Positions 24,174-26,132 of a stretch of 26,132 bases of DNA are shown piece by piece (position 1 is the first letter of the stretch; each line of letters begins with the position of its first letter). Under the pieces are notes generated by a model, which saw only the letters and a list, made by a program, of their open reading frames with translations, was not told where the DNA came from and ran no database searches. The position numbers and the translations under genes were made by a program. The stretch is taken from the IMG/VR virus record IMGVR_UViG_2529292735_000025; one strand, written 5' to 3'. The stretch is from a virus. Taxonomy: Duplodnaviria > Heunggongvirae > Uroviricota > Caudoviricetes.

Positions 24174-24282
24174 ATGCAGCATTTAAAAAATATTACGGCG
24201 GGTAATCCAAAAACGGTTGAACAATATCAATTGACAAAGAACTTTGATGTTGTCTGGTTTTTTCAGAAGATGGTAAGAACTG
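24174..24282 (+). pseudogene. G: Tail fibre assembly gene G, disrupted (N-terminal fragment; continues at 25619-25681 after IS2)
   Basis: [28 protein letters not shown] is the typical G N-terminus. The reading frame shifts inside a T6 run (24258-24263), IS2 is inserted at 24283, and the remaining G sequence (SEDGKNWYEE...TIKIAYDKDN) is cut again by an IS66-type end at 25682. Confidence 0.7.
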
Positions 24283-24373
24283 TAGACTGGCCCCCTGAAT
24301 CTCCAGACAACCAATATCACTTAAATAAGTGATAGTCTTAATACTAGTTTTTAGACTAGTCATTGGAGAGCAG

Positions 24374-24739
24374 ATGATTGATGTCTTAGGACCGGAGAAA
24401 CGCAGACGGCGTACTACACAGGAAAGATCGCTATTGTTCAGCAGAGTTTTGAACCGGGAATGACGGTCTCCCTTGTTGCCCGGCAACACGGTGTGGCAGC
24501 CAGCCAGTTATTCTCTGGCGCAAGCAATACCAGGAGGGAAGTCTTACTGCTGTGGCCGCAGGAGAGCAGGTCGTTCCTGCCTCTGAACTTGCTGCTGCCA
24601 TGAAGCAGATTAAAGAACTCCAGCGCCTGCTACGGACAAAAAAACGATGGAAAATGAACTCCTTAAAGAAGCCGTTGAATACGGGCGTGCAAAAAAGTGG
24701 ATAGCGCACGCGCCCTTATTGCCCGGGGATGGGGAGTAA
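24374..24739 (+). pseudogene. insC: IS2 orfA (insC), frame-disrupted in at least three places
   Basis: Segments of the recognisable InsC protein ([17 protein letters not shown] / [29 protein letters not shown] / [31 protein letters not shown] / [31 protein letters not shown]) are found in three different frames; net frame change is zero. Confidence 0.7.
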
Positions 24740-25602
24740 GCTTAGTCAGCCGTTGTCTCCGGGTGTCGCGTGCGCAGTTGCACGTAATTCTCAGACGAAC
24801 CGATGACTGGAAAGATGGTCGCCGCAGCCGTCACTCAGATGATACGGATGTGCTTCTCCGTATACACCATGTTATCGGAGAGCTGCCCACGTATGGTTAT
24901 CGTCGGGTATGGGCGCTGCTTCGCAGACAGGCCGAACTTGATGGTATGCCTGCGATCAATGCCAAACGTGTTTACCGGATCATGCGCCAGAATGCGCTGT
25001 TGCTTGAGCGAAAAACCGCTGTACCGCCATCGAAACGGGCACATACTGGCAAAGTGGCCGTGAAAGAAAGCAATCAACGATGGTGCTCTGACGGGTTCGA
25101 GTTCCGCTGTGATAACGGAGAAAAACTGCGAGTCACGTTCGCGCTGGACTGCTGTGACCGTGAGGCACTGCACTGGGCAGTCACTACGGGCGGCTTCGAC
25201 AGTGAAACAGTACAGGACGTAATGCTGGGAGCGGTGGAACGCCGCTTCGGCAACGAGCTTCCGGCGTCTCCAGTAGAGTGGCTGACGGATAATGGTTCAT
25301 GCTACCGGGCTAATGAAACACGGCAGTTTGCCCGGATGTTGGGGCTTGAACCGAAGAACACGGCGGTGCGGAGTCCGGAGAGTAACGGCATAGCAGAGAG
25401 CTTCGTGAAAACGATAAAGCGTGACTACATCAGTATCATGCCTAAACCAGACGGGTTAACGGCAGCAAAGAACCTTGCAGAGGCGTTCGAGCATTATAAC
25501 GAATGGCATCCGCATAGTGCACTGGGTTATCGCTCGCCACGGGAATATCTGCGGCAGCAGGCCAGTAATGGGTTAAGTGATAACAGGTGTCTGGAAATAT
25601 AG
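24697..25602 (+). CDS. insD: IS2 transposase orfB (InsD, DDE catalytic domain), 301 aa
   Basis: Full-length 301-aa ORF closely resembling E. coli IS2 InsD as recalled; normally expressed as an InsCD fusion by -1 frameshifting. Confidence 0.85.
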
Positions 25603-25681
25603 GGGCAAATCCAAACTGGTACGAAGAACAAAAGTATTTTGCTGATGACACGATAAAAATAGCGTACGACAAAGATAATAT

Positions 25682-26132
25682 GTAAGCGTAAAGCCAATGC
25701 CGTCTGTAACACCTGCTCCTTGCAGACTAAATTAGAGCTCCTTCTAAATTAGACGGAGTTCTATTGATGGATAAACCTACAGACTGGCGCTCCGGAACCC
25801 GCCGGATATTTTCTAATGAATTTAAACTTCATATGGTTGAACTGGCTTCGAAACCAAATGCCAATGTTGCACAACTGGCCCGGGAACATGGCGTTGATAA
25901 CAACCTGATTTTTAAATGGCTACGCCTCTGGCAAAGAGAAGGACGTATTTCTCGTAGAATGCCTCCAACTATTGTAGGCCCTACAGTATCACAATCTTTT
26001 CCGGCCTCTCCGACTCTGGTTCCAGTGGAACTTATCGACCCCCCGAGCTGTGCTACAGATGCTCCTGCTCCGGAGGCATTATCAGTTGCTTGTGCAGCTT
26101 CCTGCCATGTGGAATTCCATTACGGTAAATGA
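25682..26132 (+). mobile_element. Left end of an IS66-family insertion sequence (partial; continues beyond the window)
   Basis: Terminal sequence starts GTAAGCG, as typical of IS66-family inverted repeats, at the point where G coding sequence stops; followed 80 bp later by a small helix-turn-helix transposase-accessory ORF. Confidence 0.5.
25767..26132 (+). CDS. IS-encoded helix-turn-helix accessory protein (IS66-family TnpA-like / IS3-type OrfA-like)
   Basis: N-terminal pattern FSNEFKLHMVELASKPNANVAQLAREHGVDNNLIFKWLRLWQREG is typical of insertion-sequence OrfA helix-turn-helix proteins. ATG at 25767 with GGAG upstream; the track start at 25764 is TTG. Confidence 0.55.
   Translation: MDKPTDWRSGTRRIFSNEFKLHMVELASKPNANVAQLAREHGVDNNLIFKWLRLWQREGRISRRMPPTIVGPTVSQSFPASPTLVPVELIDPPSCATDAPAPEALSVACAASCHVEFHYGK

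Follow-up and report, generated by a model that had tools for sequence, protein, structure and literature searches.

Two insertion-sequence transpositions interrupt the tail-fibre assembly gene G of a P2-like prophage in Escherichia coli DEC14C

Introduction

Has the tail-fibre assembly gene of a P2-like prophage been broken up by more than one insertion sequence (IS), and could such a prophage still give rise to infectious phage? Both questions are raised by a 26,132-nt stretch of DNA (hereafter the window, meaning the whole stretch that was analysed), in which an initial annotation had read gene G as hit by a complete IS2 and, further downstream, by an IS66-type element. In phage P2, the V-W-J-I-H-G late operon ends with G, and the tail genes from FI to D are under a late promoter of their own; amber mutants of P2 established that G is essential. 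Engineering work on P2 treats G as the chaperone of H, deletes it jointly with H and complements the two in trans (PMC9942202).

Comparison with sister prophages, with the neighbouring contig of the same draft and with a second assembly of the same clone leads us to a reading that we hold with good confidence: G of this prophage was hit by two independent simple transpositions, no functional chaperone is left and the particles are predicted to be non-infectious.

A P2-like prophage with Wphi immunity between cpxP and fieF

The window derives from contig AIHM01000067.1 (52,736 bp) of the draft genome GCA_000250455.2 of Escherichia coli DEC14C; the 52-aa open reading frame at 24174-24332 is an exact-sequence match to protein EHX83972.1 of this strain. 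It comprises the left two-thirds of a P2-like prophage with Wphi immunity, integrated between cpxP and fieF. At the nucleotide level it is 97% identical to P2-like phages over 79-90% of the query. From an integrase at 1-1011 on the minus strand, the open reading frames run through C, cox, A, a pair of cargo genes, Q, P, O, N, M and L to the lysis genes, R, S, V, W, J, I and H (21921-24170), with G beginning at 24174. Together with the next contig, this reproduces the P2 gene order int-C-cox-B-A...Q-P-O-N-M-L-X-Y-K-lysABC-R-S-V-W-J-I-H-G-FI-FII-E-T-U-D-ogr, as read from the annotation of the prophage in E. coli APEC O2-211 and from Pfam families on the DEC14C contigs.

The APEC O2-211 prophage (NZ_CP006834.2) is near-identical, occupies the same cpxP-fieF site with the same cargo and has an uninterrupted G. 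Compared with it across 24,282 nt, the window shows two transitions (14377 and 14417) and four single-base deletions, all of the latter in A or T runs (8444, 9228, 19365 and 24257). The tail-fibre gene H (21921-24170, plus strand; 749 aa, Pfam Phage_tail_fib and Phage_fiber_2) is intact and aligns to its APEC O2-211 counterpart with zero differences over its whole length. The other morphogenesis genes in the window are likewise full length and identical to those of the sister prophage, so G is the sole clear lesion. In 481 complete E. coli genomes the G allele of DEC14C occurs without interruption; the uninterrupted allele that the initial annotation had proposed to seek in related strains by PCR was thus found by genome comparison, in these genomes and in APEC O2-211.

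Gene G lies in three pieces

Several features tie the interrupted gene to P2 gene G and to Caudo_TAP proteins in general. Its start codon lies 3 nt past the stop codon of H, which places it directly 3′ of H, at the end of the V-W-J-I-H-G block; its length in the intact allele, 175 aa, is also that of this group; and 'tail fiber assembly protein' is the annotation of G in all intact sister prophages. With the APEC O2-211 allele (528 nt, WP_001164161.1) as the intact reference, the Caudo_TAP domain (PF02413) covers residues 40-175 (E = 5.6e-33, 114 bits against a cut-off of 22.1). Other P2-like G proteins that we compared share about 74% identity with this allele and belong to a different H-tip/G cassette.

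Where the APEC O2-211 prophage has this gene intact, that of DEC14C carries two insertions and is found in three pieces, nt 1-110, nt 111-173 and nt 174-528, with two insertion sequences between them. Alignment places the 5′ fragment at 24174-24282 on the plus strand, where it matches nt 1-110 of the intact gene except for a run of six instead of seven T at 24257-24262. The middle fragment (25619-25681, plus strand, 63 bp) is an exact match to nt 111-173. Both fragments had been called at these positions in the initial annotation, the first as the start of G running into IS2 and the second as a G remnant, and the alignments to the intact gene bear out both calls. Both insertions divide the Caudo_TAP domain, which covers residues 40-175, and a functional chaperone is not to be expected from the locus; the loss of G function is near certain.

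The IS2 insertion

The first interruption is an IS2 (IS3 family) of 1331 bp at 24283-25613 on the plus strand, its transposase genes co-directional with G, recognised by its boundaries, length and terminal repeats. It is flanked by two copies of a 5-bp target duplication, AACTG, at 24278-24282 and 25614-25618, and 5-bp duplications also flank other IS2 copies in the comparison genomes. The terminal repeats are imperfect (TAGACTGGCC... on the left and ...GGGGCAAATCCA on the right); the left end, TAGACTGGCCCCC... from 24283, aligns as such a repeat with the right end, which closes at 25613. An alignment to an intact copy in strain 2452, annotated as an IS3-family transposase, has six differing columns.

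Nominally, orfA occupies 24374-24739 and orfB 24697-25602. The latter is open and encodes 301 aa with the Pfam domains rve, rve_3 and HTH_21. The element thus resembles IS2 in its 1331 bp, its imperfect ends, its 5-bp duplication, its orfA/orfB layout and its rve DDE domain, and differs from it in three frame-breaking indels that interrupt orfA in the draft, namely 1-nt deletions at 24422 and 24510 and a 2-nt insertion at 24632-24633, at least one of which is a sequencing artefact. The orfA indels are probably all sequencing errors, because the deletion at 24422, the sole one covered by the second assembly, is absent there. The earlier description of a complete IS2 flanked by AACTG therefore stands for the length, for both ends and for the duplication, but not for orfA as deposited, which is broken at these three sites.

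The IS66-family insertion and its continuation on the next contig

The 63-bp fragment of G is followed at 25682 by the left part of an ISEc47/ISEc43-like element of the IS66 family (25682-26132 in the window, plus strand), which starts with the repeat GTAAGCGTAAAGCC and was delimited from copies in other genomes. Three full 2541-bp ISEc43-family copies elsewhere start at the same GTAAGCG base, each with 8-bp target duplications, which upholds the IS66-type GTAAGCG end that the initial annotation had placed after the G remnant. BLAST matches starting 10 bp before GTAAGCG had suggested an element end at about 25672, with a junction formed by a microhomology deletion. This candidate was ruled out: the extra matches represent similar AT-rich target sequence, and the three complete copies begin at GTAAGCG. 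A tnpA gene with an HTH_Tnp_1 domain (Pfam) is present at 25767-26132 on the plus strand, shortened in the draft by an error at 26126 that turns a run of four A into three. The 8 bp that precede the element, GATAATAT at 25674-25681, are the left copy of a target duplication of IS66 type, the same 8 bp being present past the right end of the element on contig AIHM01000068.1.

Contig AIHM01000067.1 terminates at the equivalent of window position 26220, that is, 88 bp past the window and 539 bp inside the IS66-family element. Since both the window and its contig end inside the element, a second hit on G can be proved only through the neighbouring contig. Searches by homology, whether with intact G or with the 447-aa protein encoded downstream of it, failed to bring up the continuation in DEC14C. 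It was found by predicting the remnant open reading frames that a simple IS66 insertion would leave and matching them as exact sequences: the predicted 81-aa remnant is EHX83866.1, 'caudovirales tail fiber assembly protein [Escherichia coli DEC14C]'. The contig that encodes it, AIHM01000068.1, opens with 666 nt of the right part of the element, ending in ...GTTGACGCTTAC, followed by the 8-bp duplication and then by CATCCGC..., which is G from nt 174.

Identity to ISEc43/ISEc47-family copies is about 99% for the left 539 nt of the element; for the right 666 nt, on AIHM01000068.1, identity to an ISEc47-family copy is 99.7%. The right end reads ...CGCTTAC at positions 660-666 of that contig, which also carries the C-terminal part of a DDE_Tnp_IS66 transposase. 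The GTAAGCG terminal repeats, the 8-bp target duplication, the HTH-containing tnpA and DDE_Tnp_IS66 are those of ISEc47/ISEc43; the difference is that the middle of this element is unassembled in both drafts, so that it is known here from its two ends. We infer the linkage of the two contigs, and with it the interior of the element, from the matching duplication and the collinearity of G.

Because the 8-bp duplication lies on both sides, the second hit is an ordinary transposition with target duplication and not a deletion. Removal of both elements and of one copy of each duplication gives back the intact allele base for base, except for the T run in the 5′ fragment; both events are simple insertions. 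Past G, AIHM01000068.1 continues with a hypothetical gene of 447 aa, FI, FII, E, E′, T, U, D and ogr, and then with chromosomal fieF and pfkA. A second, intact G beyond the window, which had been named in advance as the observation that would overturn the proposed defect, was looked for on this contig; none exists in the prophage across the window and AIHM01000068.1 as far as chromosomal fieF.

Single-base deletions in the draft sequence

A further assembly, GCA_009869305.1, represents the same clone. Over 10.3 kb upstream and 10.4 kb downstream its sequence is the same as that of DEC14C, both substitutions and the chromosomal flank included. The junction between G and the left end of IS2 is also found on its contig PGBJ01000034.1 and that between the right end of the IS66-family element and G on PGBJ01000049.1, and both of these junctions agree with DEC14C.

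Besides the deletions already given, single-base losses in A or T runs affect the tnpA region of the IS66-family element (26126 and 26138) and AIHM01000068.1 downstream of G. Against near-identical references, nine of ten indel events are single-base deletions in A or T runs, eight of them in the window or its contig and one on the next contig. Substitutions are few by comparison: two against the sister prophage over 24 kb and two more in IS2, beside one 2-nt insertion. At all four sites that GCA_009869305.1 covers (19365, 24257, 24422 and position 1226 of AIHM01000068.1) the runs have their full length, the run in the 5′ piece of G being seven T in this independent assembly. A mutator-strain origin of the homopolymer deletions was considered and rejected, the deletions being absent from GCA_009869305.1. 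Because the runs are full length there, the extra frameshift in the 5′ piece of G and the broken orfA are best attributed to errors in the 2012 draft sequence.

Cargo and immunity

The cargo between A and Q consists of a C5 cytosine methyltransferase (5795/5897-6946) and, on the opposite strand, a 652-aa GHKL-ATPase protein. The latter matches models of type II restriction enzymes, and in related prophages the gene at its position is annotated as a BbrUII/HgiDII-family enzyme. Its gene is frameshifted in the draft at the T run at 8444, probably a sequencing artefact. The accessory cargo is thus likely to be potentially functional, as the initial annotation had supposed, though only if the frameshift at 8444 is such an error. 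Were homopolymer frameshifts elsewhere in the prophage real, it would have additional defects; the second assembly speaks against this.

The repressor of the prophage has 100% identity to phage Wphi C and belongs to a P2-type C/Cox switch. Switches of this type are not known to be SOS-inducible. Given this repressor and switch, mitomycin C, the inducer suggested in the initial annotation, is probably the wrong choice for an induction assay.

Insertions in G of other prophages

The double-insertion arrangement of DEC14C occurs in none of 5,426 complete E. coli genomes searched by megablast with 23600-26132. The same search exposed strain E275a, with an independent IS2 in G. Altogether, members of three IS families have inserted independently four times into an 87-bp stretch of the gene (nt 106-192): IS2 of DEC14C at nt 106-110; another IS2 variant in E275a (63 differences) at nt 110-114, in the same orientation and 4 bp from that of DEC14C; the DEC14C IS66-family element at nt 166-173; and an IS21-like element at nt 187-192, present in both GCA_964045455.1 and a Logan assembly. 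A copy of ISEc12 in the portal gene of STE15 makes it less likely that IS hits are limited to the H/G module.

Alternative readings

Two readings place the fault in the sequence data or take those data at face value throughout. One holds that the succession of IS2, 68 bp and IS66 is a mis-join of repeat reads at a contig end and that G is really intact, a suspicion that a contig ending 539 bp into the IS66-family element, the many homopolymer errors of the draft and an N in the repeat might encourage. A mis-join would not, however, start exactly at the termini of the elements; target duplications accompany both insertions, each of the length typical of its family; taking the elements out restores the gene exactly; and the G/IS2 and IS66/G junctions recur unchanged in GCA_009869305.1, which is without the homopolymer errors. 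We give this reading practically no credence. Conversely, the shortened T run in G, the orfA indels and the cargo frameshift, all of which stand in the deposited DEC14C sequence, could be taken as real, in which case the prophage would be in general decay and its IS2 copy dead. This is very improbable: with nine of ten indels being single-base losses in A or T runs set against so few substitutions, the spectrum is the signature of error and not of mutation, and every one of the four deletions that the second assembly covers is absent from it. The preferred reading therefore remains that of a prophage with G doubly interrupted and, apart from this, no clear lesion.

Two further readings accept the insertions and question what they mean. 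The first is that they are non-random, either because the AT-rich 5′ 200 nt of G are a hot region or because loss of fibre assembly is selected, the latter amounting to the domestication of a prophage that retains its immunity and restriction-modification cargo. The clustering described above favours it, as does the GC content of G nt 1-200 (32-39% against 50.7% for the prophage). Yet the cases came from searches with G fragments, so that their ascertainment is biased; ISEc12 also occurs in sister prophages, in H of Jnd12 and in the portal gene Q of STE15; the 481 complete genomes carry the same allele uninterrupted; and, in GC content, G nt 100-199 rank no lower than the 13th percentile among 100-bp windows. 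As an account of the DEC14C insertions we consider non-randomness improbable, and the general proposition that the first 200 nt of G are a preferred IS landing site, or that hosts repeatedly select the loss of fibre assembly, is still doubtful, if slightly less so. The second reading concedes that G is broken and supposes that infectious particles arise all the same, the tail-fibre assembly protein of another DEC14C prophage folding H. A P2 delta-HG lysogen can indeed receive tail fibre and chaperone in trans (PMC9942202), and E. coli has very many Caudo_TAP proteins (917 homologues at E <= 1e-10). Every chimeric fibre in that work was nevertheless used with its own cognate chaperone (PMC9942202), and G alleles of other H tips are only about 70-77% identical to that of DEC14C and diverge most in the N-terminal half. 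We regard such a rescue as unlikely, and return to the reading in which the double insertion deprives the prophage of its chaperone.

Consequences for the phage

On the evidence of the duplications, the proposed course of events would comprise the insertion of IS2 after nt 110 of G, duplicating AACTG, and that of the ISEc47/ISEc43-like element after nt 173, duplicating GATAATAT. Polar effects should be limited to G, because G is the last gene of its operon and the block from FI to D has its own promoter. Heads and contractile tails would then be assembled, with H fibres unfolded or absent. Such fibre-defective particles would give no infectious progeny unless G were supplied in trans, and on the same condition the prophage would be no helper for a P4-like satellite.

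What the locus records is ordinary prophage decay, a well-understood kind of event that involves no new mechanism, and its significance beyond annotation is small. For annotation it carries a caution, in that single-base frameshifts in the 2012 DEC14C draft are not to be taken as pseudogenes. The DEC14C prophage can be marked as a probable non-producer of infectious phage and a probable non-helper for P4-like satellites, which retains Wphi-type immunity and the pair formed by a cytosine methyltransferase and a restriction-like ATPase. With both insertions resolved and the ancestral allele at hand for comparison, it offers a textbook case of the inactivation of a prophage by insertion sequences.

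Draft errors and false pseudogenes

Compared with near-identical references, the draft carries 1-nt deletions at window positions 8444, 9228, 19365, 24257, 24422, 24510 and 26126, with a further one just beyond the window end at 26138, every one of them in an A/T homopolymer, along with one 2-nt insertion in IS2 (24632-24633). All four of the sites covered by a second, independently produced assembly of this clone (GCA_009869305.1; three in the window and one on contig 068, AIHM01000068.1, which continues the prophage) are full length there, and we therefore regard these indels as draft sequencing errors. 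They give rise to false pseudogenes in the tail-fibre assembly gene G, IS2 orfA, IS66 tnpA, a restriction-like ATPase gene and a 261-aa ORF. Separately, position 26046 reads N in the deposited contig and A in the window.

Cargo genes and tail-fibre repeats

The A-Q hot spot carries two cargo genes, one for a C5 cytosine DNA methyltransferase (5795-6946, + strand) and one for a 652-aa GHKL-ATPase protein (6987-8945, - strand) that matches type II restriction-enzyme models. Because of the T-run error at 8444, the ATPase gene appears in two parts in the draft. In relatives, the gene in the ATPase position is annotated as BbrUII/HgiDII-family, and annotations of phage PhiR44_1 include "ParaMORC3". 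The 261-aa ORF (18627-19412, - strand), located between S and V on the opposite strand and, in the draft, frameshifted at its 5' end by an A7 to A6 error at 19365, returned no match in Pfam or PADLOC and is probably a moron gene. Just past the window, the G-FI cargo hot spot harbours a 447-aa ORF (1310-2653 of contig 068, equivalent to 36986-38329 in the extracted APEC O2-211 locus), also without a match in Pfam or PADLOC, with homologues in Sodalis, Serratia, Enterobacter and Aeromonas; the corresponding position in E275a is occupied by a HEPN-domain protein.

Within the tail-fibre gene H, a 132-bp (44-aa) unit is tandemly repeated in 3.3 copies (22467-22906, 92% matching). These units correspond to Phage_fiber_2 repeats, and their copy number could change via slippage or recombination.

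Possible horizontal spread and recurrent insertion

Aligned over 24.3 kb of the window, the DEC14C prophage and its uninterrupted APEC O2-211 sister (NZ_CP006834.2) show 2 substitutions; the 9 kb between G nt 166 and ogr show none. In the neighbouring chromosomal fieF/pfkA flank, 11 substitutions separate the two strains over ~1.3 kb (contig 068 9685-11029 versus APEC O2-211 locus 45361-46704). A near-identical prophage beside a diverged flank suggests that the phage has recently moved horizontally into distinct backgrounds, in each case at the cpxP-fieF site.

Outside the left ends of ISEc43/47-type elements, the flanks are AT-rich and mutually similar, both in the window (AAGATAATAT, 25672-25681) and at three copies elsewhere (L007, AAGTATAACT; L009, AACATTATTC; L010, CAGATAAACC), a resemblance that makes BLAST alignments run across the left junction and hints at a target preference of this IS66 subgroup.

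E. coli E275a (NZ_CP035865.1) carries an independent IS2 in the same G allele (6340-7670 of its extracted locus), oriented as in DEC14C, with a GGTAC duplication; this IS2 is a different variant, with 63 differences. Its insertion point lies 4 bp downstream of that in DEC14C, and two insertions so close together may reflect a local IS2 target preference. IS21-like elements inactivate further sister copies at different essential genes: an unnamed element at G nt 187-192 in GCA_964045455.1 (L013 7132-10246), and ISEc12 both in H in Jnd12 (L018 23424-28260) and in the portal gene Q in STE15 (L019 10377-13997). IS-mediated decay is recurrent in this prophage lineage.
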